Shown: positions 948 to 17,941 of the stretch, piece by piece | Layout of the letters: every line of letters starts with the position of its first letter | Numbering within the stretch: the stretch's first letter is position 1 | Assembly (NCBI GenBank): GCA_023818895.1 | Contig: JAMWCX010000001.1 | Coordinates: 599,789 to 631,788 of the forward strand | Direction: 5' to 3' | DNA length: 32,000 nucleotides | DNA from: Candidatus Omnitrophota bacterium | GTDB taxonomy: Bacteria; Omnitrophota; Gorgyraeia; 2-01-FULL-45-10 | The notes under the pieces: model-generated | What the model was told of the DNA's origin: nothing | Seen by the model: only the letters and a program-made list of their open reading frames with translations | Databases searched by the model: none | Program-made: the position numbers and the translations under genes

Positions 948-2018
948 CTAGATCAACACCCCTTTATTATCTGGACATACTCTGCATGGACCGGGAAGCT
1001 TTTCGGCGTCTGATGAGAGGAAGACGTTCCTCATGCGCCTGAAAAAAGCATTATTCCAAATCTCTTCATCGCGGTAGTTTCCATTGCCTTCCATATTTAA
1101 CAGCATCATAGAGCAACTGGAGATATTGCCATCCCCGTCAAACCGAACCTGCGAGAAGTGTGAAACGCACTTATTTTGACGCAACGTCTTATCTATAAGC
1201 GGCGGCAATGTGAATTTTCTCCGTACCAAAGGCGGATATGCGTTCATGATAGATCTAATTTCCCTTCTTATCTTTGGGTCGGCCATGAGAGAGCGCTCTT
1301 CAGCGGTCAGCCCTTCAACGGGACATGGCAGAAAATTACATAAGAAGGTATGGTCGACGCCCAGATTCAGGCTCGTTTGGATCATGTCTGGTATGTACTT
1401 ATAATTTTGCCTATCTACTATGAAAGACAACTTAACTTTAAGTGGCGAATTGCGCCTATTCCTCTCATCTACCAAATTCTTAATAGCTCGGTATATCTTG
1501 GCATAATAATTTTCATCCATACCTGTCATTCTATTGAATTCTTTAGCGTTATGGCCATTTATACTTATTGTTATCCCGTCTAATTTAGAATTTAAGATAT
1601 TGTCGAGATTATCCTCTATTGTAGTGCCGTTCGAGAAGGTCTTAACCGTCATATGACGCATCGCGGCATAGTCGACCATCTTAAAGAAGTTCTTATTAAG
1701 CATAGGTTCGCCGGAACCTATTATTTGCACATTCAACGCATTTTCAAAACGGTCTATGATCTCCTTGAACATGGCAAAATCCATGTCCCTGGTAGTCGTC
1801 TGGGCATGCTCGTAATCAGCTGGCACTCGTTTCGAGTGAGTTGGACACATATCGCACGAAAACGTGCAGCGTGAAGTCGCGACTATCGAGATGGTAACGG
1901 GATCATAGTCGAGAATCTCTTTCCGCGCTGACATTCTATACTTTAGGTAGTTGAACTTTTGCGAAAAGGTTAGATCTCGCATCAATACGCCCGCTATGTC
2001 TTTTACTTTATTCATCAT
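948..2018 (-). CDS. Radical SAM enzyme with C-terminal SPASM/twitch-like auxiliary cysteine region
   Basis: 356 aa. The CX3CX2C motif is present as SRCTFSCDMCPTH near the N-terminus. The C-terminal region contains C-x17-C with G-x4-C (DGDGNISSC), followed by PGPCRVCPDNKG (CX2C). The start ATG overlaps the AsnB stop as ATGA. Confidence 0.85.
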   Translation of the reverse strand: MMNKVKDIAGVLMRDLTFSQKFNYLKYRMSARKEILDYDPVTISIVATSRCTFSCDMCPTHSKRVPADYEHAQTTTRDMDFAMFKEIIDRFENALNVQIIGSGEPMLNKNFFKMVDYAAMRHMTVKTFSNGTTIEDNLDNILNSKLDGITISINGHNAKEFNRMTGMDENYYAKIYRAIKNLVDERNRRNSPLKVKLSFIVDRQNYKYIPDMIQTSLNLGVDHTFLCNFLPCPVEGLTAEERSLMADPKIRREIRSIMNAYPPLVRRKFTLPPLIDKTLRQNKCVSHFSQVRFDGDGNISSCSMMLLNMEGNGNYRDEEIWNNAFFRRMRNVFLSSDAEKLPGPCRVCPDNKGVLI

Positions 2019-3901
2019 GGCTTTTTGTCTATAAACTTTCTAAGCCAGAGTTCAAGATTTACCCAGCTCCATATTGTAAAATGGGCATCCGGCTCATACC
2101 CCTTTACAAAACGATCAAACTTTTCGAGTACTTGCTTTTGGTCAAAATAGGGACGCCTGGCAAACTCACTGGACGAAAGGAGTTCGAATACCTTACCTTT
2201 AAGATCGAATTTAAACCACCTTGCTAGAGGCGCGGCGAATCCCATCTTGTCGGTTCTGTTTCTGACTTCGGCCGGAAGAATATCTTTCAGGGATCGACGA
2301 AGAATGTATTTTGTCACGCCGTCCCTTATCTTGTACTCCGGCCCGATCGAGAACATGAATTCAACGATCCTGTAATCAAGAAACGGCGCGCGCGATTCTA
2401 CTGAATGCGCCATGCTTGAACGGTCGTCAACATGCAGAAGCGATGGAAGCGGCGATATCTTGAACGCGTTGTAGAGCTCGTTATTCAAGATACCTTTGAA
2501 CCTCTTCTCTGTCGATATTCTGTTAAAGCTGGCTGACGCGAAATCCTTGTTCAAATAGTCAGGTATGGCTTTACCCGCGCCGGCACCGACCAGCGCCTTG
2601 GCTCTTTCCGGCATCGTATAAGACAACATAATCCTCGCTACGGGAGCAGCTATTTTTCTAATGCCGTTTGTCTCCTTGTAAATTGTCATCTCTTTCTTTG
2701 CCTGAGCCCACTTACCGGAATAAATAAGATCAGCAAAAAGATATAGATAATACTTATTGTATCCCGCAAGTGTTTCATCACCGCCCTGACCCGTCAAGAG
2801 AACTTTAACGCCCTTTTCTTTTGCGAGTTTCATAACATACCACTGCGGGAAGATGCTGAGCGTGCTGTAAGGTTCATCCTGATGCCAGATAATATCTTCG
2901 ATATCGTCAAAAAGCCTTTCGGGCTTGGCGAATATGAAATTCGCGTGCGCTCCCGTTCTGTCCAGGACCGGCCGGATAAACCGCCTCTCGTCACACTCCT
3001 CTTCGGTATCAAAGCAGGATGAAAAAGCCTCAAGCCGAGATCCTTCCAACAGACGCGCTGCCACGCAGGCTATCGAAGATGAATCAAGCCCGCCGCTTAA
3101 GCTAACCCCAAGCGGAACATCGCTTCGCAGCCTCAGTCTTACGGAATCTTCAAAAAGCTCATAAAACCGGTGGAAGGCCTCTTCCTCATCTCTGAATCTC
3201 AGCCTTTTGGCAGGATCGGGGCTCCAGTATCTGACCTGCGTAAACTTCCCATTTTCAAGACTAAGTTTAGCATAGTGGCCGGCTTTCAACTGCCTGATAC
3301 CTTTGAAAAACGTCCTTTCTGATATATCGATATAACCGTAACCGGATGCCACGTAATTATATATCGTCTTATCATCAGGCTCCGCCTTGACTTGCGGATG
3401 GGCCAAGAGAGCCTTGATCTCGGATGCGAATATGAAAATATCCCTGTCAGAATAATAATAAAATGGCTTTACCCCAAACCTGTCCCTCGAGCAGAATATT
3501 TCGCGTTTCTTTGGATCGTATATGACGAAAGACCACATCCCATTAAAGCGGTTCAGGCAGTTAGTTCCCCACTTCTCATAGGCATGTAATATTACCTCTG
3601 TATCGCTCTTAGACTTAAACGTAAAACCGAGCCTAATAAGCTCATCACGAAGTTCGCGATAGTTATATATCTCACCATTATGCACTATAACAGCGCCTGA
3701 GGAGTCGCTTGTCATGGGCTGAGAGGCGTCTTTGGAAAGGTCTATAATAGAAAGCCTCGCGTGACCAAGCCCCACAGGACCGTCAACATACATGCCCGTA
3801 TCATCAGGCCCGCGATGGCGCTGAATATCTACCATTGCCCTTAACACAATTTCGGATGCTGGATATTTATTCAGATTTAACAAACCTGCTATTCCGCACA
3901 T
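2015..3901 (-). CDS. asnB: Asparagine synthase family glutamine-dependent amidotransferase (AsnB/WbpS-type)
   Basis: The track ORF runs 2015..4030, but the Ntn-glutaminase nucleophile requires the start at MCGIAGLL, whose ATG is at 3901..3899. That ATG overlaps the upstream TAA by 1 nt (TAATG). GATase-II motifs are present (HRGPDD, HARLSIID, NGEIYNY). The PP-loop SLSGGLDSS lies in the synthetase half. Confidence 0.9.
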   Translation of the reverse strand: MCGIAGLLNLNKYPASEIVLRAMVDIQRHRGPDDTGMYVDGPVGLGHARLSIIDLSKDASQPMTSDSSGAVIVHNGEIYNYRELRDELIRLGFTFKSKSDTEVILHAYEKWGTNCLNRFNGMWSFVIYDPKKREIFCSRDRFGVKPFYYYSDRDIFIFASEIKALLAHPQVKAEPDDKTIYNYVASGYGYIDISERTFFKGIRQLKAGHYAKLSLENGKFTQVRYWSPDPAKRLRFRDEEEAFHRFYELFEDSVRLRLRSDVPLGVSLSGGLDSSSIACVAARLLEGSRLEAFSSCFDTEEECDERRFIRPVLDRTGAHANFIFAKPERLFDDIEDIIWHQDEPYSTLSIFPQWYVMKLAKEKGVKVLLTGQGGDETLAGYNKYYLYLFADLIYSGKWAQAKKEMTIYKETNGIRKIAAPVARIMLSYTMPERAKALVGAGAGKAIPDYLNKDFASASFNRISTEKRFKGILNNELYNAFKISPLPSLLHVDDRSSMAHSVESRAPFLDYRIVEFMFSIGPEYKIRDGVTKYILRRSLKDILPAEVRNRTDKMGFAAPLARWFKFDLKGKVFELLSSSEFARRPYFDQKQVLEKFDRFVKGYEPDAHFTIWSWVNLELWLRKFIDKKP

Positions 3902-4848
3902 TACTTTTCGCTCTTCTTTCTTGCTATTATAAGCACATTCCGTCCGGTCAAGCCTCGCGCCCTGTCGTAGACCAGGCAAAAAGGCACCAGCGGTAGCACC
4001 ATCGCCCTTTTCAGCTGCCCTAGTATACACGTTAGATGACTTGCCTCGCTGCCGCTGCCGCCATCTTTCGCTGTCCCAGCTCGGTTTTTCTCGATCTTCG
4101 CGATAATTCCAAAACGCACCTTCTTTATCAGTGAGTTGACCGTACTCTTTACCGTCAGAGGCTCATAGAGGCGGACAATCACTTCAAATCCCGCCGCCTC
4201 CATAAGCTTGCGCAGGCTTCTGTTGTCCCACCAAGAGAGATGGTGAGGCGGCCTGTCCCACTCTTCCCGCGTCGAATAACATAGGGACTGACGGCTTTGG
4301 CTAGGCACGGATAAAACTAACAAGCCGTCTTTATTCATCATCTTCGCGGCGGCCCTGACAAACCCAAGGGGATCGCTCAGGTGCTCGACTATATGGAATG
4401 CACATACAGCGTCAAATTTCTCGCGGGGAAAATTCGCTGCAAATTGATCGAGGGTGCATTTATAGACTTTTTCGTCTCCGAGCCTCGCCTTAGCTATCCT
4501 TAAAGCGTTTTCATTGATATCAACGCCTATAGCGTCATGCCCCCTCTGTTTGGCGATATAAAGAAAGCGGCCATCGCCGCAGCCCGCCTCGAATATCCGT
4601 TTTTTACCGTGCAAGAAGCCCACGGCCTTACCGAACTCCCACCTGTCGATGTAGTAATCTTCGGGTGATATGTTCTGATATTCTTCATCGCTTAGAGGCC
4701 TCATCGGATCTGAGAACACAACTGAACACGACGGGCATTTATAAAGACTGTAGATCCGGCCGTTTTTGCCCTCATACGACTCTACATATTTTGAATCATC
4801 TTTTCCGCACAGGATACAATTCATACTATTTTGCCCCGCACTTATCAT
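3901..4848 (-). CDS. Class I SAM-dependent methyltransferase with N-terminal CxxC...CxxC zinc ribbon
   Basis: 315 aa. The N-terminus reads CILCG...CPSC. SAM-binding motif I is present as IFEAGCGDGRF, followed by an acidic loop GVDIN. ATGA overlaps occur at both ends of the gene. Confidence 0.85.
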   Translation of the reverse strand: MISAGQNSMNCILCGKDDSKYVESYEGKNGRIYSLYKCPSCSVVFSDPMRPLSDEEYQNISPEDYYIDRWEFGKAVGFLHGKKRIFEAGCGDGRFLYIAKQRGHDAIGVDINENALRIAKARLGDEKVYKCTLDQFAANFPREKFDAVCAFHIVEHLSDPLGFVRAAAKMMNKDGLLVLSVPSQSRQSLCYSTREEWDRPPHHLSWWDNRSLRKLMEAAGFEVIVRLYEPLTVKSTVNSLIKKVRFGIIAKIEKNRAGTAKDGGSGSEASHLTCILGQLKRAMVLPLVPFCLVYDRARGLTGRNVLIIARKKSEK

Positions 4849-5933
4849 GGTGTAGGATGTTTCGTTATATAATCTGCCAAGATCGCGGCAAATTTTTCAT
4901 TACCTTTTTTAGAAAAATGAACGTAGTCGTAAAAGCAGGAATCGTCGAAATCTTCATCCAGAACTTCAGCCACAAAATCCGCACCTTCTGCGGCACAAAC
5001 TTGTTTCATTTCATTGTTATACAATTTCATAGTAGCACCAAGATCTCTCATCTTGACATATGGTATCCAGAAAAAAACTTTGTCTCCTTCCATAGCATCC
5101 CTCGCCAACCTCTGTTCATTTATTATTTGGGGAACCATTATGGGCCGGATACCTTGGGCCCTGCATAGCGCTAAGATGAGTTTCAAATTACGAGCATATA
5201 AAAGGAGGGACCTCTTGTCCGGCTCGACAGTAAATTTCGAAGGTGTGCCTTCTATACTATAGCCGCCGTCTGGATCCTTAATTAGAAAGGTATTAACGAT
5301 TTTTCGCAGGAATCTCAATGTCGCTGATTTATTCCCAAATTTGAATAAATATAGTACAAGATTGTCATATTGTGAGCGGCCGTGAAAATCAGAATAATCC
5401 GGCTTAAGGCCTTTGACGTGCATATTGCGCATGTCATTCCAGCCTTCGTAATAAACACATATATCGGGTGAGATATCAGAAAGCCAAAGCGCCGTTTGAA
5501 TTAGATTCTCGACCGTCGTATAGCCGGGAACTCCCATATTGATAACTTCATACTTAGAGCCGAGTATTTTTTCCAGATAATATGGCCATGTCTGGTCATC
5601 GGAAACGCCTATGCAGTAGGTAGATGACCCGCCTAGTACAACCACCCTTACCCTGCCCTCATCCTTGGTTTGCCGAATCTCCGCGCCGCGCATCCCCAGA
5701 GAATTATTGGTAAAAGTTATCCCGTTCTTTGAGGTAAACGTTGCGCCAGGCTTCGGAACCCCGACAAGATAAGGATGTTTCTTGAATAAATAATGGTGTG
5801 GTTCCTCCTCGGCCAAAAACAACCATTTGTTTGCCGTTACCCTGTAGGCTATCTGACAGGTAATCTCGATGCCGATCAGAAGAACAGCTATGTACAGCAG
5901 TATCCCTAAAAAACGAAGGATGCCTTTTCTCAT
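4845..5933 (-). CDS. Membrane-anchored SGNH/GDSL-family hydrolase or acyltransferase (paralog 1 of 3)
   Basis: 362 aa. There is an N-terminal TM helix (ILRFLGILLYIAVLLIGIEITC). The SGNH blocks are VVVLGGSST (block I), NMGVPGYT (II), YEGWNDM (III) and DYVHFS (V, DxxH). It aligns by eye with the proteins at 7483 and 8603. Confidence 0.8.
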   Translation of the reverse strand: MRKGILRFLGILLYIAVLLIGIEITCQIAYRVTANKWLFLAEEEPHHYLFKKHPYLVGVPKPGATFTSKNGITFTNNSLGMRGAEIRQTKDEGRVRVVVLGGSSTYCIGVSDDQTWPYYLEKILGSKYEVINMGVPGYTTVENLIQTALWLSDISPDICVYYEGWNDMRNMHVKGLKPDYSDFHGRSQYDNLVLYLFKFGNKSATLRFLRKIVNTFLIKDPDGGYSIEGTPSKFTVEPDKRSLLLYARNLKLILALCRAQGIRPIMVPQIINEQRLARDAMEGDKVFFWIPYVKMRDLGATMKLYNNEMKQVCAAEGADFVAEVLDEDFDDSCFYDYVHFSKKGNEKFAAILADYITKHPTP

Positions 5934-7084
5934 CTATTATCCCTTAAAAACTCTCTTATCTTCTCAACGATATAATTCATTTCCGCTTTATCGAGCTCAG
6001 GATACACCGCAAATGAAAGGGTCTGCTCCGATGCCTTCTCCGACTCTTTCAGGTCGCCCTTCCTGTATCCAAGATTTCGATAGCACTCTTGCAGATGCAG
6101 CGGTACCGGATAGTATGTCCTAGCTTCGATGCCGCTTGAATTCAGGTACCTGGACAGCTCCTCCATCCGGTTTTTGAGTCTTATCACATAAAGATGGTAA
6201 GTATGGACATTGTATTCTGGGACGTAAGGGCATACTACTGGCAGATCCTTCAGCTTCTCATTATAATAGGCGGCGTTCTTCCGGCGGGCTTCGAGCCATC
6301 TGTCGAGATACCTGAGCTTAACGCGCAGGACCGCGGCCTGCAGGTTATCGAGTCTTGAGTTCATTCCTATCTCTGAGTGAATATACCTCTGGGCGCTGCC
6401 GTGCACCCTGAGCATCCTAATCCTATCCGCAACCTTTTTATCATTGGTGACCACCATGCCGGCATCACCGAAAGCCCCGAGGTTCTTCGACGGAAAGAAG
6501 CTGAGGCACCCTATGTCTCCCATGGATCCGGCCTTTCGGCCCTTGTAGGTAGCACCTATAGCCTGCGCGGCATCCTCTATGACTTTAAGCTTATGTTTCC
6601 TGGCAATCGACAATATCGGGTCCATGTCAGCGCACTGCCCGTAGAGATGAACCGGTATCACTGCCTTTGTTTTGCTGGTGATCGCCTTTTCGATAAGCGC
6701 GGGGTTTATGTTGTAGGTCTGCGGGTCTATATCTACGAAGATCGGTTTGGCGCCGACTATTGAAATAGCCTCAGCGGTGGCGAAAAAGGTAAACGGAGAA
6801 GTGATGACTTCGTCTCCGGTGCCTATCCCCAGCGCCTTCAGCGCCAATATGAGAGCATCTGTGCCCGAGGCAAGGCCGACACCGTATTTTGTGCCACAAT
6901 AAGCGGCCGTTTCGGCTTCAAACGCGCTAACATCCTCGCCGAGTATGAAATTCTGGTTATCTATAACGTTCTTTACGGACTTATCGACTTCGGACTTTAT
7001 GAACTGGTATTGCTTTTTAAGGTCCAATATCGAGACTTTCATAGAAGTCTTTTCTTTAGATACCTGGTTTGCGGACGTAACCAT
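5930..7084 (-). CDS. DegT/DnrJ/EryC1/StrS-family PLP-dependent nucleotide-sugar aminotransferase
   Basis: The family pattern is recognisable: LDLKKQY, FILGEDVSAFE, ASGTDALILAL, and the PLP-lysine context SFFPSKNLGAFGDAG. The track start at 7087 is TTG. The adjacent ATG at 7084 has a strong GGAGGGAG Shine-Dalgarno sequence upstream and overlaps the upstream TGA (TGATG). Confidence 0.9.
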   Translation of the reverse strand: MVTSANQVSKEKTSMKVSILDLKKQYQFIKSEVDKSVKNVIDNQNFILGEDVSAFEAETAAYCGTKYGVGLASGTDALILALKALGIGTGDEVITSPFTFFATAEAISIVGAKPIFVDIDPQTYNINPALIEKAITSKTKAVIPVHLYGQCADMDPILSIARKHKLKVIEDAAQAIGATYKGRKAGSMGDIGCLSFFPSKNLGAFGDAGMVVTNDKKVADRIRMLRVHGSAQRYIHSEIGMNSRLDNLQAAVLRVKLRYLDRWLEARRKNAAYYNEKLKDLPVVCPYVPEYNVHTYHLYVIRLKNRMEELSRYLNSSGIEARTYYPVPLHLQECYRNLGYRKGDLKESEKASEQTLSFAVYPELDKAEMNYIVEKIREFLRDNR

Positions 7085-7317
7085 CAAGCTCCCTCCCTCA
7101 TCCCGTTAAGAATGATACTGCGATGTTTGTTAAGTGACCTTTTTATATAACCTTTCTTTTCAAGGGCTAATAACTTATCAACCGCTGACTTATACGATTG
7201 AATGCTGCACCCTTCTTGTATTTCCCTTATATAAGGCGAGATAGAGTTCTTCTCTATGTATGCCTTGATATAGTCGTATACCTCTTTCTGCTTTTGGGTA
7301 AGCATGTACTTTTCCAT
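7084..7317 (-). CDS. Small winged-helix DNA-binding protein resembling the LexA N-terminal domain only (no S24 peptidase domain)
   Basis: 77 aa. LTQKQKEVYDYIKAYIEKNSISPYIREIQEGCSIQSYKSAVDKLLALEKKGYIKRS matches the LexA DNA-binding-domain pattern (LTxxQxxVxxxI...PxxREI...S...HLxxLxxKGxIxR). An AAGGAGAG Shine-Dalgarno sequence lies 8 nt upstream of the ATG. This is the first gene after the promoter. Confidence 0.7.
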   Translation of the reverse strand: MEKYMLTQKQKEVYDYIKAYIEKNSISPYIREIQEGCSIQSYKSAVDKLLALEKKGYIKRSLNKHRSIILNGMREGA

Positions 7318-7363
7318 ATTGCGCTCTCCTTTTATTATATTATAACAATATATTATTATATTT

Positions 7364-7379
7364 CTTCATATATAGGAAG
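7364..7379 (-). promoter_or_regulatory. 16-bp near-palindrome CTTC-N8-GAAG overlapping the predicted transcription start; candidate operator
   Basis: The plus strand reads cttcatatataggaag, and 14 of 16 positions are self-complementary. It starts 5 nt downstream of the predicted -10 hexamer. The arm-N8-arm geometry resembles LexA-type boxes. The region is AT-rich, so a chance occurrence is not excluded. Confidence 0.3.
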
Positions 7380-7384
7380 CTGAA

Positions 7385-7413
7385 ATATTACCATATTTTA
7401 AGCTTCGTGTCAA
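7385..7413 (-). promoter_or_regulatory. Sigma70-type promoter for the tailoring operon
   Basis: Read on the minus strand: TTGACA (7413..7408), a 17-nt spacer, then TAATAT (7390..7385). It sits about 70 nt upstream of the ATG at 7317, inside the only long AT-rich non-coding gap (7318-7482) in this part of the window. Confidence 0.55.
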
Positions 7414-7482
7414 TTAAATACTGGCTTTTTCTTATAATATCCTGCCTTTATGCGTATAATAAGAGTAGGCTATATAGGATTA

Positions 7483-8619
7483 CTACTGCTTGAGGCATTT
7501 GCTGCGCAGGGTTGCCTGATATAGAATTTTGCCAAATATCTCGTTACCTTTACGGTTGAAGTGATAATCATAATCATAATAGAGGGCTGAATCCGCATCA
7601 GGATATTCCCTAATAGAACTAACATCAACAAATTCTACGTCCTCTTCCGCGCAAAGGCTTCGTAAGATATTTGTGATTTCGGCGAGCCTATCCTTACCAC
7701 CTGAATAAAACCTTTTAGACGCAACATACCATTTATCGGGAACAAAGAAAAGAGCGGCCACCATGCCCTGCTTTCTCGCAAGACGTGAATACTCACCAAG
7801 ATTCTTTCGCAAGAACTCAAGAAGACGGATATCAGAGAACTCGTCATTAAGAGTGCAGGGAGTGTCGCAAGAGCTTATTAGCCCCAACTTGAGGGCCAGT
7901 TCTGAAAGCGTTTTGTTTCTTTTGACCTTATCAATTATGAAACCGTAACTTAAAAGATGGTAGCGAAGATAATCTTTAAGCTCTATGAAAAAATGCCTTT
8001 TTATCTTTTCCGCGGCTTTTATTTTCAGCCCCGGAAGCCCCATTTCAACAGCAGATTTAGCTAACCCCTCGTCTTCCAAGCTTTCCAAGATATCACCGCC
8101 ATGTAATCCCATCATTATCACATCCGCTTTATATATGCCGGCCAGTTCCTTCGCCAGCTCGATATAATCAACCAATGAATTAGCCGGGATACCGGCATTT
8201 ATGACCTCGTATTTACCTTCGCTGGCAAGTTCTTTTTCAAATACCTTGGGATAGGTCTGGTCATTTTCCACGCCGTGCCCGAAGGTAAAAGAATCTCCCA
8301 ATATTATGATGCGTTTTGTTTGCGGCGGCACATCAAAGGTAAAGTCCCTGTCACGGAACCCTTTACTGTTGGACTTTATGAGGTATGAAAACTCCCTTCC
8401 TTTCACACGGTATTGTCTGTTAGGCAAAAGCCTGTAGCCTTTTCCGCTCGGAGCGCGCGCAAATATATCTTTAGAAAGATATATAGTCCTTTTCTCATCG
8501 CGATGGACCCTGAAACGTAGATACAATTCCAGTCCTGTTAAAAATAAGGCCATGGAAAGTACGACAGAAGCAAGGAATGTTGCGATGGCGAAGATCGAAT
8601 TCTTACTCTTTGCTGCCAT
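7483..8619 (-). CDS. Membrane-anchored SGNH/GDSL-family protein (paralog 2 of 3)
   Basis: 378 aa. There is an N-terminal TM helix (IFAIATFLASVVLSMALFLTGL). Block I is the canonical IIILGDSFTFG and block II is NAGIPANS. Block III is divergent (MGLHGGD, no Asn). The C-terminal DYDYHF stands in place of DxxH. Confidence 0.75.
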   Translation of the reverse strand: MAAKSKNSIFAIATFLASVVLSMALFLTGLELYLRFRVHRDEKRTIYLSKDIFARAPSGKGYRLLPNRQYRVKGREFSYLIKSNSKGFRDRDFTFDVPPQTKRIIILGDSFTFGHGVENDQTYPKVFEKELASEGKYEVINAGIPANSLVDYIELAKELAGIYKADVIMMGLHGGDILESLEDEGLAKSAVEMGLPGLKIKAAEKIKRHFFIELKDYLRYHLLSYGFIIDKVKRNKTLSELALKLGLISSCDTPCTLNDEFSDIRLLEFLRKNLGEYSRLARKQGMVAALFFVPDKWYVASKRFYSGGKDRLAEITNILRSLCAEEDVEFVDVSSIREYPDADSALYYDYDYHFNRKGNEIFGKILYQATLRSKCLKQ

Positions 8620-9754
8620 ATAAGTTTTCTTTTGCGAAAGGAAAGCCTTTTATCGCCTCAAATATGGCCGAGGCGATTATCGCTTGCCCTCTATCGCCTA
8701 CATGGACAGCGTCAAAAAATATAGTATCGGGATAAGGATCATAAAGAGCCATAAAATCCAGGAAAGCGAACTTATCTGACTTGGCCATCTCAGCGAGGCG
8801 TTCCCTTGCGTTTATAAACATGGGTTTTACGATGGGCTGAAGAGCCGGCGGTTCTGAAGCCAGGATGTATTTTTCGTCCTCCGATGGATCTTTTTTAAAA
8901 TAAAGGTTTGGCTGCAGTATAACGACGGGCTCTATTCCTAAACCGCGCAGTATCCTTACCATCTTTCTTATGTTGCTAAGGTAGGCATCGACGCCCGCCG
9001 GATTTGAGGAGAGTTTATTAATAGATTCCGCCTTCCTTTTTTCTTCCAGCCTATTCATAATAAGCTTGGTAAGTCTAAAATTCTTCAATCGCTTGTTCAG
9101 GAAAAGCTTGGTCGGCGAAACCTTAAGGGCTTTTTCAATCATCTCAAACCGCCATGGATAGTTTGGCCGCCTGTCGTTTATTACAGAGCCGACTATGTCA
9201 TTGAATCCATCAAAGATTACCACCATATCCGGTTTAAGGTCGATAAGCTCGGTAACTATAAGAACGAGCTCCTGGGCAGAAATCGCCGAGGCAAGCCCGG
9301 CGTTTATCACCTCGAACTTTTTGTTCCTGGATTCGGTGTTTAGCAACTTCTCAAGAACTCTGGGAAATGCTGTTTCGTCGCTTGATGAACCGTATCCCAT
9401 CGCACCGCTTCCTCCGACAATGATTATCCTGAAGGTGCCTTCTGGCTTTTCTTTTGACACCTCAGCGCCGCGAAAACCGAAAGAATTTATATTGATCGTG
9501 TGCGAATGAAAATTCGGCTTCATGCGAAAAGCAAGATACGGAACGACCACAAGGTCTGTTGCAGCCCTATACTCAGCTATCTGCTGGGGTGAGAGCATTG
9601 CTGAGATGGCCTTATTTTCTTTGTTCTCCCTGGCTTTCTCCGCAATCTTTTCGAACACTTTAAGGCATCTGTCCAGAAGCATAAAGAACAGCACAACAAC
9701 AACGAACGCGAATAGTATCTTTTTGCTTAAGGTGAGGCTTTTCTTTTGCGTCAT
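8603..9754 (-). CDS. Membrane-anchored SGNH/GDSL-family protein (paralog 3 of 3)
   Basis: 383 aa. There is an N-terminal TM helix (ILFAFVVVVLFFMLL). The blocks are IIIVGGSGAMG (I), NAGLASA (II), FDGFNDI (III) and FDAVHVG (V, DxxH). A GGAGG Shine-Dalgarno sequence lies 8 nt upstream of the ATG. The gene overlaps the downstream paralog by 17 nt. Confidence 0.8.
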   Translation of the reverse strand: MTQKKSLTLSKKILFAFVVVVLFFMLLDRCLKVFEKIAEKARENKENKAISAMLSPQQIAEYRAATDLVVVPYLAFRMKPNFHSHTININSFGFRGAEVSKEKPEGTFRIIIVGGSGAMGYGSSSDETAFPRVLEKLLNTESRNKKFEVINAGLASAISAQELVLIVTELIDLKPDMVVIFDGFNDIVGSVINDRRPNYPWRFEMIEKALKVSPTKLFLNKRLKNFRLTKLIMNRLEEKRKAESINKLSSNPAGVDAYLSNIRKMVRILRGLGIEPVVILQPNLYFKKDPSEDEKYILASEPPALQPIVKPMFINARERLAEMAKSDKFAFLDFMALYDPYPDTIFFDAVHVGDRGQAIIASAIFEAIKGFPFAKENLYGSKE

Positions 9755-12006: not shown

Positions 12007-12948
12007 TTATCTGACGGCTGACCTGAAGTATGCTATAGTCCGGTTAAGACCAGACTCGAGGGCAACTTTTGGAGCCCACTTAAGAGCCTTTTTGGCCATA
12101 GAAATATCGGGGCATCTGACCTTAGGATCGTCAACGGGCAGTTCCTTAAATATGACTTTGCTTTTGGAACCTGATATCCTTATCACCGTCCTAGCCAATC
12201 CCAAAAGCGTCATCTCGTGCGGATTTCCGATATTGACCGGTTCAGTAATACCGGAATTTATAAGTTTATATATTCCATCCACCATGTCTGATATATAACA
12301 GAAACTTCTTGTCTGCCTGCCAGTTCCATAAACGGTAATGGGGCGATTCTTAAGCGCCTGACTTATGAAATTAGGTATAGCCCTGCCGTCATGCTCACGC
12401 ATCCGAGGGCCATATGTGTTAAATATACGCACTATCCGCGTATCAACCTTGTGGTAGCGATGATAGGCCATCGTCATAGCCTCGGCAAAACGTTTCGCCT
12501 CATCATAAACGCCGCGGGGGCCTATAGGGTTAACGTTGCCCCAGTAACTTTCAGGCTGAGGATTGACTAGAGGGTCGCCATAGACTTCGCTTGTTGAGGC
12601 AAGAAGGAACGTGGCTTTCTTCTTCATGGCAAGGCCAAGGGCGTTATGAGTCCCTAACGACCCTACCTTGAGCGTCTGTATGGGGTATTTCAGATAATCG
12701 GCGGGGCTTGCGGGCGATGCAAAGTGAAGTATATAGTCAAGACCACATTTTATGTCTATGTACTTGGTTACATTATGCTCCAAGAACTCGAAATTCTTAT
12801 TTTTAAGATTATGGGCAATGTTCTCTATCTTGCCTGTTATAAGGTTATCCATGCAGATAACCTTGCACCCTTTTTCTAGAAAAAGGTCGCAGAGATGAGA
12901 ACCTATAAAGCCGGCGCCGCCGGTAATCAAAACGGTTTTTTCGCGCAT
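12007..12948 (-). CDS. uxs: UDP-glucuronate decarboxylase (UDP-xylose synthase)
   Basis: There is strong by-eye similarity to UXS1-type SDR enzymes: [60 protein letters not shown] and [10 protein letters not shown]. The track start is 12966. I prefer the ATG at 12948 (MREKTV...), which has an AGGAG sequence 6 nt upstream. Confidence 0.9.
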
Positions 12949-13913
12949 CGCCTGCTCCTGAACCATTCAACCGTACGCTCCAGTCCCTCGGTAAAACCGA
13001 CTGTCTTTTTCATCTTAAGGAGCCTTCTCATTTTGCTCACATCGGCGCGAGTTTTTCGGACGTCGCCCTTCCTCTTTGGCGCGAAAACAGGCTTTATATC
13101 TGTTCCAAGTATCCTGTTTAGTTCCTTTACTATGTCGATAATCGATATCGTGGAGCCACATGCCACATTGAATACCTCGCCCGATATACCAGGCATAACA
13201 CATGCCCTAAGGTTCGCCTCAACCACATTACCCACATACGTAAAGTCCCTTGACTGTCTCCCATCCCATTCAACGATGGGGCTTTTGCCCTCCATCATTC
13301 TGAATAAAAAAGCTGGTATTACAGCGGAGTATTTGGATTCGGGGTTCTGTCGCGGGCCGAAGACATTGAAATATCTAAGCGAGACCGTCTCCAGGCCGAA
13401 CGTCTTCGCAAAAGTAATGCAATAGTTCTCCGCGGCGAGCTTAGATACGCCGTAAGGAGATATTGGCTTGGGCAGATCTGTTTCCCTCTGAGGAAAGCTT
13501 TTGGCGTCGCCATAAGCAGAACTCGATGAGGCGTAGACGACCCTCTTAACGCCGGCCTTCTTCGCCGCCATCAAAAGATTCAATGTCCCAAAAACATTTA
13601 TGTCATTTGTAGTAAAAGGGTCTTCAACCGATTTCGGGACGGAACGCAAAGCGGCCTGGTGTATCACATAATCAATCCCTTTCATTGCCCTGGCCAGCGT
13701 TTTAGCGCTCCGGATATCGCCCTTTATAAATTCCACTTGCCCAAGGAAAGGCTTAAGATTCTCCAGCTTGCCGGTAATCAGATTGTCGATAACTCTGACC
13801 CTATTGACCTTAAGAGCAATTCCATTTTCTGACAGATCTTTCTTTCTTACAAGCTCCTCGACAATATTTGAACCTATAAAGCCGGCGCCGCCGGTAACAA
13901 GATAGTTTGCCAT
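12927..13913 (-). CDS. NAD-dependent nucleotide-sugar 4-epimerase, WbpP/TviC-like
   Basis: 328 aa. Motifs shared with WbpP/TviC as I recall them are [63 protein letters not shown] and [12 protein letters not shown]. Confidence 0.8.
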
Positions 13914-13916
13914 AAG

Positions 13917-15221
13917 TTATAGCCTGATTATGTTCTTTCTTTCTTTAATGCCTTTAAGCACGTTGCGTGTATCTATTATGAGCTTCGAATTGGCAACAAT
14001 TGTATCGTAATCTACGCTGCTGTGGTCTGTGACTATCAGCACGCAATCTGAATTTTTGAAGGTATCCGCAGAAAATTTGGCGCAGGTAAGATTTATATTG
14101 TTTATCTTCAAGTATGGAAACAGGGGGTCATAGTAAGAAACATGCGATCCTTTCCGCATCAGTATATCAATCACTTCCAATGCCGGCGATTCTCTAAGAT
14201 CTTTCACATCTTTTTTATATGCCACCCCAACGACGATTACCTTCGAGCCTTTGAGCGCTTTTCCGCGATCATTAAGGCCTTCGATCACTTTTGTGATCAC
14301 GTAATGCGGCATCTGCGAATTCACGTAAGACGCCAAGTCAATAAAACGCGCCTCGAAACCATGCACCCTCGCCTTCCACGAAAGATATATCGGGTCAACC
14401 GGTATGCAGTGACCTCCGACACCCGGGCCGGGATAGAACGGCATGAATCCGTAAGGTTTGGTCTTCGCGGCGTCTATGACTTCCCAGACATCTACGCCAA
14501 GCCTGTCACACATGAGCATTATCTCGTTTACAAGACCGATATTGACGATCCGGAACGTATTCTCAAGGAGCTTCACCATCTCAGCGACTTTCGCCGATGA
14601 TACAGGCACTATCGTATCTATCGCCTGTTCATAAAGAAGCTTGGCGATCTCCGTTGAATGAGCGGATATCCCTCCTATTATCTTCGGCGTATTCTTGGTA
14701 TCATACTTTGGATTGCCGGGATCGACCCTTTCGGGCGAGAAAGCCAGATAAAAATCCCTCCCCTCCTTCATGCCGTCTTTCTCGAGTATGGGAAGCATCA
14801 CCTCCTCTGTTGTTCCTGGATACGTTGTTGATTCGAGAACGACGATCTGGCCGCGCTTCATGTGCCGCTTGATATTTTTTACGGCGGATACGATATAGGA
14901 GACATCGGGTTCTCTTGTTTTGTGTAGCGGCGTGGGCACGCATATGATAACAGCGTCGAGGCTTTTTATCACGCTAAAATCGGTGGTTACCCAAAGTGAT
15001 TTCGACCTTTTGACAAGGGCTATATCCGATTTTGGCACATCGAGTATATATGATTCGCCCCTTTTTATCCTCTTCACACGATCCTCATCGATATCTATGC
15101 CCCACACATGAAACCCGCTTTTGGCAAACGTGATCGCAAGCGGAAGCCCTACATAACCAAGTCCTATAATACCTATTCTTGCCTTTTTGCTTGATATCTT
15201 TTTCTTTAGTTCACTTATCAT
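13917..15221 (-). CDS. Nucleotide-sugar 6-dehydrogenase, UDP-GlcNAc (WbpO/TviB) or UDP-ManNAc (WecC) dehydrogenase family
   Basis: 434 aa. The N-terminal NAD fold reads ARIGIIGLGYVGLPLAITFA. A catalytic-Cys context is present (GPGVGGHCIPVDP). It lies directly upstream of the WbpP/TviC-like epimerase, as in the wbpO-wbpP and tviB-tviC pairs. Confidence 0.85.
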   Translation of the reverse strand: MISELKKKISSKKARIGIIGLGYVGLPLAITFAKSGFHVWGIDIDEDRVKRIKRGESYILDVPKSDIALVKRSKSLWVTTDFSVIKSLDAVIICVPTPLHKTREPDVSYIVSAVKNIKRHMKRGQIVVLESTTYPGTTEEVMLPILEKDGMKEGRDFYLAFSPERVDPGNPKYDTKNTPKIIGGISAHSTEIAKLLYEQAIDTIVPVSSAKVAEMVKLLENTFRIVNIGLVNEIMLMCDRLGVDVWEVIDAAKTKPYGFMPFYPGPGVGGHCIPVDPIYLSWKARVHGFEARFIDLASYVNSQMPHYVITKVIEGLNDRGKALKGSKVIVVGVAYKKDVKDLRESPALEVIDILMRKGSHVSYYDPLFPYLKINNINLTCAKFSADTFKNSDCVLIVTDHSSVDYDTIVANSKLIIDTRNVLKGIKERKNIIRL

Positions 15222-16152
15222 GTCGATCCCTTACCTTTTCCTTTCTAATACTAAGCACCATGTACTCTTTCAGCGCCTCTTTCCAACTACGCATCCTATA
15301 CCCCGTGTATTCAGCAAACTTTGAACAGTCCATGGCCGACATCGCGGGACGCCTCGCCGGCCTGTTAAGCTCTTCCGAAGATATCGGCAAAACCCGCGCC
15401 GTCGAGCCGGATAATCTTACTATCTCCCTGGCATACTCGAACCAGGAAACGCTTCCTGAGTTAGATACGTGATAAATGCCGTAACCATTCAGCCGCGATT
15501 CGCTGTTCGTCAGTTTTTTGAGCAACGCATGCATGGCACAGGCCAAATCCACCGTATATGTCGGCGACCCTACCTGGTCATCCACTACCTTTAGGACCTT
15601 TTCGGCCCTGGCCTTCGCGGCTATCGTATCCACAAAATTCTTGCCGTTCTTACCGTATAACCAGCTTGTCCGGATAATATAGTGCTTTTTGACATTCTCT
15701 CGGACAGCGATTTCTCCTTTGAGTTTTGAGTCGCCATAGACGTTCAAGGGCGCCGGCTTGTCATCTTCTTTATAAGGAGAGCTCTTTTTCCCGTCGAACA
15801 CAAAATCGGTGCTTATATATATCAACGTCGCCCCCGCCGCTTCGCAGGCAAGCGCCACATTCTTAGTGCCTTCTGAGTTTATCTTATATGCCCTGTCTTT
15901 AGCGAGCTCGCAACCGTCTACATCGGTCATGGCCGCCGCATGCACAACAAAATCCGGATCAGCCTCGGCTATCACATCTTCGATGGATTCCCTCTCGGTG
16001 ATATCCTCCTTATAAAATCTCCCGATCGTCGATTGCCGATTTTCGACCAAATCAGTGCCCTCAACCTCATAGTCGGCACATAGTTCCTTCCAAAGATCAC
16101 ACCCGAGCATCCCGCTCGAACCCACGATCAATATCTTATTTCTTTTCGACAT
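15211..16152 (-). CDS. rfbD: dTDP-4-dehydrorhamnose reductase
   Basis: The RmlD-like N-terminus reads KILIVGSSGMLG, and the YGDSK catalytic region is present. The track start at 16173 is GTG. The ATG at 16152 (MSKRNKILIV) gives a standard N-terminus, but either start is possible. Confidence 0.85.
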   Translation of the reverse strand: MSKRNKILIVGSSGMLGCDLWKELCADYEVEGTDLVENRQSTIGRFYKEDITERESIEDVIAEADPDFVVHAAAMTDVDGCELAKDRAYKINSEGTKNVALACEAAGATLIYISTDFVFDGKKSSPYKEDDKPAPLNVYGDSKLKGEIAVRENVKKHYIIRTSWLYGKNGKNFVDTIAAKARAEKVLKVVDDQVGSPTYTVDLACAMHALLKKLTNSESRLNGYGIYHVSNSGSVSWFEYAREIVRLSGSTARVLPISSEELNRPARRPAMSAMDCSKFAEYTGYRMRSWKEALKEYMVLSIRKEKVRDRHDK

Positions 16153-17108
16153 GCGATCAACCGCTCGGCCCACGCCCTATTACCGGAATACCATGCGACC
16201 GTCTCTTCAAGCGCCTTTCTGAATTTATGGCGCGGCCTCCATCCTAGAGCCTTGATCTTGGTCACATCGAGAGCGTAGCGCTTGTCATGGCCGGGCCTGT
16301 CTTTTACGTATTCAATAAAGCTTTCGTCCTTGCCGAGAATTGAAAGAAGCATTCTGGTAAGTTCTATATTAGTGATACCGCCGCCAGCGCCTATATTGTA
16401 AATCTCGCCGGGCTTTCCCTTATGCATTACGACATCTATCGCCTCGCAATTGTCGATAACAAAAAGCCAGTCACGGATATTCATGCCGTCAGCATATAGA
16501 GGCACTTTTTTGCCGGCCATCAGGTTTGTGATAAAAAGAGGGATTATCTTCTCAGGATATTGATACGGTCCGAAATTATTTGAGCTGCGGGTTATTATGA
16601 CCGGCACCCCGAAAGTTACAAAGTATGACCTGGCTAAAAGGTCTGCCCCCGCCTTACTCGCGGAATAAGGGCTATTAGGCTCAAGGGGATCGGTCTCTTT
16701 GGACAAACCTTCCTCTACGCTACCATAGACTTCGTCTGTGGAAATCTGAAGGAATAGCCTCGTGCCAAACTTCCTGGCCGCTTCGAGAAGCGTATAGGTA
16801 CCGAATATGTTGGTCCTTATAAACTCCGATGGATCCTTTATGGACCTGTCGACATGAGACTCGGCCGCGAAATTTATTATCACCTCGCAATCCTTGGCAA
16901 GATTCTCCACCACAAACGAATCCGCTATATCGCCTTTTACAAACTCATAATTCTCATTATCTTCTATATCGCGGAGGTTCTCAAGATTGCCGCAATAGGT
17001 AAGCTTATCGAGATTGACAATCCTGTAATCCGGATGTTTATCGAGAAGGTATCGTATGAAATTGGAGCCGATGAATCCTGCGCCGCCGGTAACCAATATT
17101 CTTTTCAT
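16128..17108 (-). CDS. rfbB: dTDP-glucose 4,6-dehydratase
   Basis: 326 aa. The motifs are [35 protein letters not shown] and SPYSASKA. Confidence 0.92.
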   Translation of the reverse strand: MKRILVTGGAGFIGSNFIRYLLDKHPDYRIVNLDKLTYCGNLENLRDIEDNENYEFVKGDIADSFVVENLAKDCEVIINFAAESHVDRSIKDPSEFIRTNIFGTYTLLEAARKFGTRLFLQISTDEVYGSVEEGLSKETDPLEPNSPYSASKAGADLLARSYFVTFGVPVIITRSSNNFGPYQYPEKIIPLFITNLMAGKKVPLYADGMNIRDWLFVIDNCEAIDVVMHKGKPGEIYNIGAGGGITNIELTRMLLSILGKDESFIEYVKDRPGHDKRYALDVTKIKALGWRPRHKFRKALEETVAWYSGNRAWAERLIACRKEIRY

Positions 17109-17113
17109 AGCTC

Positions 17114-17209
17114 AAATCCAAAAATCAAAATCCAAAAATCAAAATCATAGACAAATATCCCAAGTTTTTAATTTTAGGTTGTCGTTTTAATGCTTTGATT
17201 TTTGGATTT
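17114..17209. repeat. 14-bp unit in tandem (2.4 copies) plus a perfect inverted copy, bridging the rmlA 3' end and the rmlB start
   Basis: The unit aaatccaaaaatca occurs at 17114-17127 and again at 17128-17141, with a partial aaatca at 17142-17147. Its exact reverse complement tgatttttggattt is at 17196-17209, inside the last codons of rmlA (encoding KSKNQ). The tandem copies end 6 nt upstream of the rmlB ATG at 17108. Confidence 0.8.
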
Positions 17210-17938
17210 AGGATTATTCTCCTTCCTGGCAACGAGATTGTTCGCCCTCAAAAGCGACTCGAATGTCCCTGCGTCCGTCCACCACCCATCCATCACGCTG
17301 TATTCAAGCTGGCCCATTTTGAGATAGGCGTTATTGACGTCCGTTATTTCCAGCTCGCCGCGGCCGGAGGGCTTGAGCGTCTTGATTATATCAAAGACCT
17401 TGTTGTCATACATGTATATGCCGGTCACCGCGTATTTTGACTTCGGCCTCCTCGGCTTTTCCTCTATCGAGACTATCTTCTTACCTTTAAAACCGACCAC
17501 GCCGAAACGTTCAGGATCCGGCACCTCTTTTATAAGTATCCTCGCCCCGCGGCCCTGAGCCCTAAAGGCGTCTACATGCCTTTTGATGCTTCTCTCCACG
17601 ATATTATCACCCAGGATTACAACGATGTTATCATCATCGGCAAAATATCTGGCAAGACTGAGCGCGTCGGCTATCCCGCCCTCCCCTTCCTGATAGGTAT
17701 AATTGATATGTTTGAGACCGAACTCCTTTCCGTTGCCGAGAAGCCGCAGAAACTCTCCAGCATGCATACCGCCGGTCACTATCAGTATATCCTTTATACC
17801 TGCGTCAACCAGCGTCTGAATTGGGTAATATATCATCGGTTTGCAGAAAACAGGGAGCAGATGCTTATTGGTAATCTTGGTTAGGGGATATAATCTCGTG
17901 CCAAGCCCGCCGGCAAGTATCACGCCCTTTAGGCCCAT
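17174..17938 (-). CDS. rfbA: Glucose-1-phosphate thymidylyltransferase (short form)
   Basis: 254 aa. KGVILAGGLGTRLYPLTKITNKHLLPV is the nucleotidyltransferase signature. The C-terminal tail KENNPKSKNQSIKTTT is atypical and is partly encoded by the inverted repeat. Confidence 0.88.
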   Translation of the reverse strand: MGLKGVILAGGLGTRLYPLTKITNKHLLPVFCKPMIYYPIQTLVDAGIKDILIVTGGMHAGEFLRLLGNGKEFGLKHINYTYQEGEGGIADALSLARYFADDDNIVVILGDNIVERSIKRHVDAFRAQGRGARILIKEVPDPERFGVVGFKGKKIVSIEEKPRRPKSKYAVTGIYMYDNKVFDIIKTLKPSGRGELEITDVNNAYLKMGQLEYSVMDGWWTDAGTFESLLRANNLVARKENNPKSKNQSIKTTT

Positions 17939-17941
17939 ATG

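Follow-up and report, generated by a model that had tools for sequence, protein, structure and literature searches.

What is a radical S-adenosylmethionine (SAM) enzyme of an uncharacterized family doing among the sugar-tailoring genes of a surface-polysaccharide locus? The question is raised by a stretch of 32,000 nucleotides from a Candidatus Omnitrophota genome (GenBank assembly GCA_023818895.1, contig JAMWCX010000001.1, positions 599,789 to 631,788), which as a whole is called the window here. At one end of the window, seven closely packed genes encode, in order of transcription, a LexA-like winged helix-turn-helix protein (wHTH; HTH in gene orders), a DegT aminotransferase, an SGNH hydrolase-like protein (SGNH1), a methyltransferase (MT), an AsnB-family amidotransferase, the radical SAM enzyme, and a GT4-like glycosyltransferase (Table 1). 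A first-pass annotation had read these genes as a self-contained operon for an undescribed sugar modification. The object of interest is both smaller and more general than that set: it is the trio of AsnB, a radical SAM enzyme with a Twitch domain, and GT4, often accompanied by the HTH and DegT genes. That this core module makes and attaches an unusual sugar by an uncharacterized step is the reading we favor, and we hold it to be somewhat on the probable side.

The radical SAM enzyme scores 59.8 bits against PF04055 (threshold, 29.5 bits), and its C51-x3-C55-x2-C58 motif is invariant in 21 sequences. Beyond this CX3CX2C motif, the alignment of the 21 family members contains only five invariant cysteines, namely C227, C284, C302, C345, and C348. 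The seven domain calls of the first-pass annotation all hold in Pfam and NCBIfam searches, except that the auxiliary region, which had been called SPASM, is by sequence and predicted fold a one-cluster Twitch domain and not a full SPASM domain. A two-cluster SPASM domain is recognized by a C-terminal motif of seven or eight cysteines that includes CX2CX5CX3C. Here, PF13186 stays just under its threshold (20.6 versus 21.5 bits), a CX2C (C345, C348) is the only part of the motif present, and the chain ends eight residues later. In the AlphaFold2 model (predicted local distance difference test score, 92), a beta-hairpin (residues 290-293/298-300) lies between C284 and C302, followed by a helix (residues 324-334) and then by C345-x2-C348, which is the Twitch layout of Cys, beta-hairpin, Cys, helix, and CxxC. 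A Twitch domain is a shortened version of the SPASM domain, with a single auxiliary cluster (PMC9012708).

The family is small: of 1.84 billion representatives searched, only 233 clusters match at E <= 1e-30. The approximately 120 homologs listed at NCBI carry no annotation beyond "radical SAM protein." No curated model covers the family, as all 48 matches to NCBIfam radical SAM models fall far under their cut-offs, the best being TIGR04317 (99.7 versus 380 bits). In sequence-profile searches of the Protein Data Bank (PDB), MoaA was the best match (E = 2e-6), followed by BlsE (E of ~2e-4) and DesII (E = 3e-4); the Twitch region alone had no sequence match there. In the Foldseek comparison, the top match was DesII (8hzv; E = 4e-15, template modeling [TM] score of 0.61, and 15-16% identity), whose substrate is a dTDP-aminosugar. 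The second was BlsE (7vob; E = 5e-13, TM scores of 0.62/0.67, and 17% identity), which decarboxylates the glucuronic-acid nucleoside cytosylglucuronic acid (PMC3715490). These two outranked SuiB, CteB, MoaA, PqqE, the viperins, anSME, and BtrN, all at 13-20% identity. Because the best structural neighbors act on a nucleotide sugar and a nucleoside uronate, the radical SAM enzyme can be expected to act on a sugar. Membership of the DesII, BlsE, BtrN, or MoaA families was rejected at the sequence level, where no model exceeded its cut-off and identities were 13-17%.

Distant members of the family give independent support for a role in glycan synthesis. In one of them (P0181, 616 aa), a GT2 domain is fused to a distant relative of the radical SAM enzyme (26% identity over 333 residues) in which the Twitch cysteines are conserved. 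Another protein (P0212, 1953 aa) carries GT2, B12-binding radical SAM, and further radical SAM/SPASM modules in one chain, and three more (P0178, P0199, and P0218; 1431-1927 aa) have three or four radical SAM/SPASM modules each. In Thiomargarita and Methanoperedens, the genes of distant members lie among GT2, DegT, and UDP-sugar dehydrogenase genes.

Which neighbors travel with the enzyme was read from other genomes. Genomes and metagenomes were scanned with the radical SAM profile, and five neighborhood look-ups were added, giving ~45 loci with a family member of at least 40% identity, against which the window proteins were compared by tblastn. The counts below leave out redundant loci and those with too little flank. 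An AsnB ortholog lies upstream of the radical SAM gene on the same strand in 24 of 28 loci, and a GT4-like gene follows within 5 kb on the same strand in 21 of 26, directly adjacent in most; DegT lies upstream in 19 of 28. AsnB, the radical SAM gene, and GT4 are contiguous in several Omnitrophota loci and in a Nitrospinae genome (L009/L021); loci with this arrangement include L008, L009, L036, and L038. The core is present without GT4 in a locus from Elusimicrobia (L015), and the radical SAM-GT4 pair alone is found in L022 (41% identical) and in a locus from Sericytochromatia (L012). The hosts of the core are Omnitrophota, Nitrospinota, and Elusimicrobiota. In six loci (L002, L010, L019, L032, L038, and L044), a dehydrogenase-Epi2-Epi1 block stands directly before HTH-DegT. 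The evolutionary core is thus AsnB, then the Twitch radical SAM enzyme, then the divergent GT4, usually preceded by HTH-DegT and the dehydrogenase/epimerase block.

The seven genes had been taken as one set, and AsnB, MT, and SGNH had been proposed as the partners to look for beside this radical SAM gene across genomes. AsnB answers to that expectation in the proportion given above. In contrast, an MT ortholog in the same position was found only in L032 (50% identical and of equal length), and no SGNH gene was found in the 40-odd related loci, so that of the seven only DegT, AsnB, the radical SAM enzyme, and GT4 recur. L032 is collinear with the window (Epi2-Epi1-B12 radical SAM-GT2-HTH-DegT-MT-AsnB-radical SAM-GT4), the sole difference being its lack of SGNH genes; therefore, the window represents the common layout with SGNH3 and SGNH2 added before the promoter and SGNH1 added after DegT. 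The three SGNH genes are additions specific to this genome. Nor are the seven genes distinct from the nucleotide-sugar genes upstream, as had been suggested: relatives keep the dehydrogenase-Epi2-Epi1 block before HTH-DegT, and in the window itself the paralogs of SGNH1 sit just upstream of the promoter.

The same comparison bears on whether there is a pathway to explain at all. The locus could be an ordinary mosaic cassette of shuffled tailoring genes, in which the radical SAM enzyme works on another sugar or another step than DegT and AsnB do and no single new pathway exists. Much of what surrounds the core has this character. Relatives insert zero to two B12-binding radical SAM or MT genes on either side of the radical SAM gene, with up to three B12-binding radical SAM genes around it; the SGNH genes occur in this genome only; and the window cluster encodes enzymes for at least three sugars (dTDP-6-deoxyhexose, UDP-glucuronic acid, and a UDP-N-acetylhexosaminuronic acid). 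The variable insertions also fit a preprint in which polysaccharide cassettes of Omnitrophota are reported as hypervariable regions (10.64898/2026.06.07.730766). However, the order AsnB, radical SAM, GT4 is kept down to ~41-45% identity of the radical SAM enzyme, in at least three phyla and with gaps often of 40 nt or less, which is hard to account for without functional coupling. In addition, the GT4 is a distinct subfamily, marked by the invariant acceptor-domain motif PWVADLRDLW, and it tracks the radical SAM enzyme on at least 20 contigs. A chance assortment of genes therefore seems to us rather unlikely.

The partners of the radical SAM enzyme point to the kind of sugar involved. DegT matches PF01041 with 433.6 bits and has its pyridoxal phosphate (PLP) lysine in SFFPSKNLG. 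Its nearest solved structures are 7b0d, QdtB, WbpE, and chain 2oga, which we take to be DesV (E of 1e-120 to 1e-97), and by this similarity it would fall in a QdtB/WbpE-like 3-aminotransferase neighborhood; against the NCBIfam equivalogs PseC, LegC, WecE, ArnB, and DesI, it remained below every cut-off. AsnB passes the generic asparagine-synthase model TIGR01536 (487.9 versus 267.1 bits) and has both an MCGIAG N terminus, with the cysteine nucleophile, and the PP-loop SLSGGLDSS. An assignment to the XrtA/PEP-CTERM amidotransferases (TIGR03108) was rejected (445.3 bits versus a cut-off of 816.9). WbpS and WbtH amidate a sugar carboxylate in known O-antigen loci, and AsnB could be WbpS/WbtH-like because it is found in the context of a dehydrogenase and a TviC-like epimerase, as in those pathways.

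The third member of the trio, GT4, is encoded in part beyond the window, and its full-length form is P0267 (438 aa). PF13439 and PF13579 match its N-domain only, and the C-domain has no Glycos_transf_1 match; its EX7E region reads GWYSAKLYDY, in which K348 and Y352 are invariant. The AlphaFold2 model has a GT-B fold closest to MshA (E = 4.5e-19) and BshA. The invariant PWVADLRDLW motif lies in the N-domain and suggests that the enzyme has a specific, conserved substrate. As in the first-pass annotation, no characterized pathway was found for the gene set. DegT, the radical SAM enzyme, GT4, SGNH1, and MT reached no NCBIfam equivalog cut-off, AsnB reached that of the generic model only, and the literature searched, from which most subscription journals were missing, gave no match.

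From these parts, the following pathway can be proposed. A UDP-N-acetylhexosamine (UDP-HexNAc) would be oxidized to the uronic acid and epimerized by the upstream dehydrogenase and short-chain dehydrogenases/reductases (SDRs), DegT would aminate the uronic sugar, and AsnB would amidate its carboxylate. The radical SAM enzyme would then take a ring hydrogen atom from the amino/amido sugar, which may be nucleotide-linked or lipid-linked, and would finish the reaction by means of the single auxiliary [4Fe-4S] cluster and Cys227. The leading guesses for the outcome are epimerization and two-electron oxidation to a keto-sugar. In the case of an epimerization, the hydrogen atom donor could be the invariant Cys227, predicted to lie where barrel strand beta-6 ends, as a cysteine is in NeoN and EpeE. 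In the case of an oxidation, the auxiliary cluster could serve as the electron acceptor, as proposed for the auxiliary [4Fe-4S] cluster of BtrN with its four cysteine ligands (PMC9012708). GT4 would install the product, and MT and the membrane-anchored SGNH proteins may add or edit methyl and acyl decorations. Among the possible chemistries for the radical SAM step, epimerization or oxidation of an amino/amido uronic sugar seems the most likely.

Several points weigh against this proposal: (i) The loci were gathered by way of the radical SAM enzyme, and the co-occurrence figures are conditional on its presence. (ii) DegT is absent within 8-10 kb in about one-third of the loci (e.g., L009/L021 and L022); therefore, amination would not be obligatory for the radical SAM step. 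(iii) The structural matches are weak (TM scores of ~0.6 and 15-17% identity), and other small-molecule substrates are also compatible with them. (iv) C284, C302, C345, and C348 probably bind one [4Fe-4S] cluster and Cys227 may lie in the active site, but Cys227 is not kept in the distant GT2-fused relative P0181. (v) That the acceptor of AsnB would be a sugar carboxylate comes from genomic context only.

The position of the radical SAM enzyme in the sequence of steps may also be a different one. It could act before DegT, as a BtrN/DesII-type dehydrogenase that makes the ketone for the aminotransferase and thereby does the work of a 3,4-ketoisomerase or of an NAD-dependent dehydrogenase of the WbpB type. 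In favor of this, DegT has its closest matches among the 3-aminotransferases named above, neither the window nor its Pfam-annotated relatives contain a Gfo/Idh/MocA protein, Foldseek ranks DesII first, and the Cys-hairpin-Cys...CxxC layout is also that of BtrN, in which a four-cysteine cluster goes with a two-electron oxidation beside a DegT-family aminotransferase (PMC9012708). This idea is weakened because the window has other possible sources of keto-sugar, namely RmlB together with a cupin and also Epi1, because the adjacency of Epi1 to HTH-DegT is conserved in many relatives, and because in some loci (L021, from Nitrospinae, and L022) DegT is missing within 10 kb. Moreover, the linkage of the radical SAM gene to AsnB and GT4 is tighter than that to DegT, and a dehydrogenase needs no invariant fifth cysteine. 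We consider a supply of ketone to DegT unlikely.

The predicted structure of GT4 raises the further thought that the product of the trio is not a polysaccharide unit but a small-molecule glycoside, for instance a compatible-solute-like compound or a thiol of low molecular weight. MshA and BshA, its best structural matches, are the first enzymes of mycothiol and bacillithiol synthesis, and in the Nitrospinae locus a polysaccharide-deacetylase-family gene comes right after GT4. However, MshA and BshA are generic top matches for GT4 folds (13-17% identity here), and the trio is found amid genes for initiating transferases (Bac_transf/WecA-like), Wzx flippases, Wzy-like proteins, GT2, GT1, and GT-C, which makes a free glycoside improbable. 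Peptide maturation of the kind seen for ribosomally synthesized and posttranslationally modified peptides, with AsnB as a lasso-type cyclase and the radical SAM enzyme as a SPASM-type maturase, can be set aside as very improbable: the lasso-cyclase model NF033535 gives AsnB 422 bits, the radical SAM enzyme has weak matches to peptide-maturase models, and SuiB and CteB are among its structural neighbors, but the NF033535 cut-off is 525 bits, AsnB retains its N-terminal cysteine nucleophile and an intact GATase domain and passes the glutamine-hydrolyzing model, the radical SAM enzyme is of the Twitch and not the two-cluster SPASM type, junctions of -4 to +4 nt give no space for a precursor gene, and the context is uniformly one of glycan biosynthesis.

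We therefore return to the core module as the maker of an unusual surface sugar. In its fullest form, this reading would make the AsnB-Twitch radical SAM-GT4 trio an undescribed module whose radical SAM enzyme carries out a sugar reaction without a characterized counterpart in surface glycans (e.g., an amino/amido hexuronic sugar being epimerized or oxidized by a radical route). Besides Omnitrophota, a few other anaerobic phyla would use the module, and the cassettes that house it would have as many as four or five radical SAM genes together with a regulator, specific to the phylum, that consists of a LexA DNA-binding domain only. We put this forward tentatively, as plausible rather than probable.

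How the genes are expressed can be addressed from their arrangement. All large open reading frames (ORFs) of the window lie on the minus strand, and the overlaps and the single short gap reported by the first-pass annotation were recovered exactly. The measured junctions are -1 for HTH to DegT (TGATG), -4 for DegT to SGNH1 (ATGA), -4 for SGNH1 to MT, -1 for MT to AsnB (TAATG, which yields the canonical MCGIAG start), -4 for AsnB to the radical SAM gene, and +4 for the radical SAM gene to GT4 (positions 944-947). This overlapping or abutting arrangement of the six genes after the HTH gene would fit translational coupling. The promoter that had been called in the sole sizeable noncoding stretch (7318-7482; 165 nt, GC content of 26%) was likewise confirmed, and an AGGAG Shine-Dalgarno site lies 8 nt ahead of the ATG of the HTH gene (position 7317). 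The extended pattern ATTGAC-N13/14-TATnnTAnTAT occurs once in the window versus 0.00 occurrences expected. When the window was aligned with the regions 5' of the orthologous HTH gene in five related loci (L002, L019, L020, L032, and L044; proteins 51-88% identical), the -35 element (TTGAC) and the extended -10 element (TAT-n-n-TA-n-TAT) were invariant and the flanks had diverged. The predicted promoter thus exceeds a chance match and is conserved across related loci. Inside the unit, promoter-like matches were at chance level (41 found versus 29.7 +/- 6.4 expected), and no internal terminator was found. With one strand, overlapping or abutting genes, and one promoter, the architecture expected for the proposed co-expression is present in silico. 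As no Rfam match was found in the window and the 5' untranslated region gave no significant structural signal (z = -0.17), no riboswitch or leader structure is proposed.

The limits of the unit are less clear-cut than had been thought. Against a separate unit, a simple scan of 7318-7482 found no terminator-like site, so read-through from the upstream genes is possible. The upstream block from RmlA to SGNH2 is equally tight (gaps of -46 to +65 nt), so that close packing characterizes the cluster as a whole and does not mark out a seven-gene unit. At the other end, the context downstream of GT4 was taken from a 7.4-kb contig (L001) of the same genome and from the loci of relatives. Beyond the left edge of the window, a further glycosyltransferase gene begins at the GT4 stop (TAGATG); therefore, the unit exceeds seven genes and is not self-contained. 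This gene is open to the end of L001, and its product is 58% identical to a 444-aa Glycos_transf_1 protein of L032. A scaffold gap (run of N) lies within it at 6672-6681 of the contig, and its last ~30 codons (7200-7358) diverge from the L032 ortholog, which may be an assembly-end artifact. In relatives, the genes 3' of the core encode MTs, GT1, a Wzx-type flippase, GT2, and GT-C; some related loci also carry Wzy-type genes. The region is best read as the promoter-proximal part of a putative transcription unit, within an Omnitrophota surface-polysaccharide locus that spans at least 20 kb; its radical SAM, GT4, and HTH proteins are each 100% identical to proteins of a "Candidatus Omnitrophica" metagenome-assembled genome at NCBI.

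The first gene of the unit encodes a protein of 77 aa that matches PF01726 (56.6 bits, E = 2e-15) over the whole domain. The S24 peptidase part was absent in the Pfam search, and membership of the LexA repressors was rejected, the score on TIGR00498 being 56.3 bits versus a cut-off of 110.95 and coming from the DNA-binding domain alone. The protein thus shares the N-terminal winged-helix DNA-binding domain of LexA but has no S24 autopeptidase/dimerization domain, and it is found inside glycan loci, whereas LexA acts at SOS genes. About 190 relatives (71-80 aa, 67-92% identity) were found, and every match with a named source is from Omnitrophota/Omnitrophica. It is the best-conserved product of the unit, with 78-88% identity in most relatives and 71% in L044, compared with 58-74% for the enzymes of the unit in the closer relatives. 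A regulator dedicated to this pathway, as first suggested, was rejected, as the same family occurs in Omnitrophota glycan operons without DegT, AsnB, or the radical SAM enzyme, as a protein of 75-76 aa: between a WecA/Wzy fusion and a Wzx-GT2 operon in L024/L025 (8001-8231), and between epimerases and GT-C/GT2 genes (PMT_2/GT2/YfhO) in L026 (8001-8228). The promoter motif recurs in L026, at the head of the operon and five genes ahead of the regulator gene. A more fitting description of the protein is that of a glycan-locus regulator typical of the phylum. An AT-rich box (AAATATAATAATAT) lies ~15-25 nt downstream of the -10 element and is partly kept (AATATAnnnATA) at the same position in L002, L020, L019, L032, and L044. 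The wHTH protein probably binds this conserved box and autoregulates its unit.

Of the genes that lie outside the conserved core, SGNH1 scores 49.3 versus 32.9 bits on PF13472 and contains the GGSST (block I), GWND (block III), and DYVH (block V) motifs; its identity to SGNH2 and SGNH3 is 25-27%. The annotated genes of the window include no MBOAT or Acyl_transf_3 partner. In MT, CILCG...CPSC stands ahead of the Rossmann domain, and the C-terminal tail is hydrophobic. By base composition, neither SGNH1 nor MT stands out as a recent horizontal insertion.

Further upstream, Epi1, Epi2, and the dehydrogenase can be called a functionally linked supply block. The best matches of the B12-binding radical SAM protein between this block and the SGNH genes, all weak, are to HpnJ and BchE. 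The cupin gene occupies what appeared to be a 449-nt gap between Ugd and RmlA, its product being under the 150-aa limit of the ORF list. The cupin has a faint FdtA match and does not reach the RmlC equivalog cut-off, and its role may be that of an RmlC-like epimerase or else of a 3,4-ketoisomerase feeding the QdtB-like DegT. On the minus strand (22644-25480), a few kilobases upstream of the polysaccharide cluster, lie tandem genes for two GGDEF diguanylate cyclases, of which one has a GAF domain; they come after a transaldolase and an LptD-N-like protein of 727 aa, and a link between cyclic di-GMP and glycan production is possible. Between DUF1015 and DnaJ (29393-30054, minus strand) are two small genes missing from the ORF list, one for a VanZ-like membrane protein (132 aa) and the other for an FmdB-type CxxC zinc-ribbon protein (88 aa).

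Table 1. Features of the polysaccharide locus, in window coordinates
Feature	Position	Strand	Basis or remark
GT4: divergent GT4-like GT-B glycosyltransferase, first 314 of 438 aa	1..943	minus	PF13439, PF13579; runs off window
Radical SAM enzyme with Twitch-type auxiliary-cluster domain	948..2018	minus	PF04055; uncharacterized family
AsnB: glutamine-hydrolyzing AsnB-family amidotransferase	2015..3901	minus	TIGR01536; GATase_7 + Asn_synthase
MT: class I SAM methyltransferase with N-terminal CxxC...CxxC zinc-ribbon-like segment	3901..4848	minus	PF13489, 91 bits
SGNH1: membrane-anchored (N-terminal) SGNH/GDSL hydrolase-like protein	4845..5933	minus	PF13472
DegT: DegT/DnrJ/EryC1 PLP sugar aminotransferase	5930..7084	minus	PF01041
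LexA-DNA-binding-domain-only winged-helix protein, 77 aa	7084..7317	minus	PF01726
Conserved AT-rich box AAATATAATAATAT	7350..7363	minus	Candidate wHTH operator
Sigma-70-type promoter, TTGACA-17-TAATAT with TG extension	7385..7413	minus	Pattern scan and 6-locus alignment
SGNH2	7483..8619	minus	Membrane-anchored SGNH1 paralog, just upstream of promoter
SGNH3	8603..9754	minus	Membrane-anchored SGNH1 paralog, just upstream of promoter
GT2 glycosyltransferase	9760-10593	minus	Ortholog ahead of HTH gene in L032, 52% identity
B12-binding radical SAM protein	10593-12002	minus	Ortholog ahead of HTH gene in L032, 68% identity
Epi1 (4,6-dehydratase/UXS/ArnA-like SDR), Epi2 (TviC-like 4-epimerase), UDP-HexNAc-type dehydrogenase	12007..15221	minus	Supply block
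RmlD, RmlB, RmlA, RmlC/FdtA-like cupin, Ugd	15211..19683	minus	
RmlC/FdtA-like cupin, 148 aa	17942-18388	minus	PF00908 (dTDP_sugar_isom), 58.8 bits

A small, unannotated radical SAM family is thus tied to an amidotransferase and a glycosyltransferase in the surface-glycan loci of uncultured anaerobes, and these loci are unusually rich in radical SAM enzymes, often several of them B12-dependent. To our knowledge, radical SAM chemistry on sugars comes almost only from antibiotic pathways (DesII, BtrN, BlsE, AprD4, and GenK). If the reaction of the present enzyme were defined, it would (i) add a new enzymatic step to bacterial glycan biosynthesis, (ii) explain an oxygen-independent, radical-based diversification of cell surfaces in Omnitrophota, a phylum thought to be host-attached, and (iii) give a handle on similar blocks of radical SAM genes, such as the virulence-linked genes of a Brachyspira plasmid. 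How these variable cassettes are regulated could likewise be tested on a model built from the conserved promoter and the tiny LexA-like protein.

Among known systems, the closest in gene content are the uronamide O-antigen pathways, WbpO/WbpP/WbpS of Pseudomonas aeruginosa O6 and WbtE/WbtF/WbtH/WbtI of Francisella tularensis. These loci, which are of the Wzx/Wzy type, bring together a UDP-HexNAc dehydrogenase, a 4-epimerase, an AsnB-family amidotransferase, and a DegT protein, and the same four enzyme types are grouped in the window. We know of no radical SAM enzyme in the WbpS/WbtH loci, and the dedicated divergent GT4 partner belongs to the present module only. In the literature, we found no characterized pathway that combines a radical SAM enzyme with AsnB, DegT, and a glycosyltransferase in O-antigen, capsule, or exopolysaccharide loci, a weak negative given that most subscription journals were outside the search.

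The antibiotic pathways offer likenesses of a different kind. Desosamine synthesis in Streptomyces venezuelae (DesI/DesII/DesV/DesVI) likewise unites DegT-family aminotransferases, a nucleotide-sugar radical SAM enzyme, and a SAM-dependent methyltransferase in one cluster; however, DesII is ~480 aa long, the dTDP-deoxysugar is destined for a macrolide and not for a surface glycan, and neither AsnB nor a GT4 partner is present. BtrN, with BtrS in butirosin synthesis, combines one auxiliary [4Fe-4S] cluster, as predicted here, and the same Cys-hairpin-Cys...CxxC layout with a DegT-family partner, but its substrate is an aminocyclitol, it has 250 aa, it ranks 23rd in the structural comparison (TM scores of 0.38/0.52), and no sequence similarity is detectable in the Twitch region. 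BlsE, from blasticidin S synthesis, acts on a uronic-acid sugar (PMC3715490), and the window cluster is predicted to make uronic acids; it differs in serving nucleoside antibiotic biosynthesis, in having no AsnB/GT4 context, and in its low similarity (17% identity and a weak profile match).

The nearest parallel in theme comes from another anaerobe, Brachyspira hyodysenteriae, whose plasmid pBHWA1 (L061 = NC_012226.1, 6143-25030) has seven radical SAM/SPASM genes interleaved with rfbF, rfbC, an epimerase gene, and a glycosyltransferase gene. That block is thought to act in lipooligosaccharide biosynthesis or glycosylation, and part of it correlates with virulence (PMC4267127). Its radical SAM proteins are only ~25% identical to the one studied here, and it has no AsnB, DegT, or LexA-like gene; it is a precedent for the theme at the level of annotation and not an explanation. 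Seen beside these systems, the predicted operon is not a new category but of a familiar kind, a polysaccharide locus, with a conserved, uncharacterized radical SAM module built into it.

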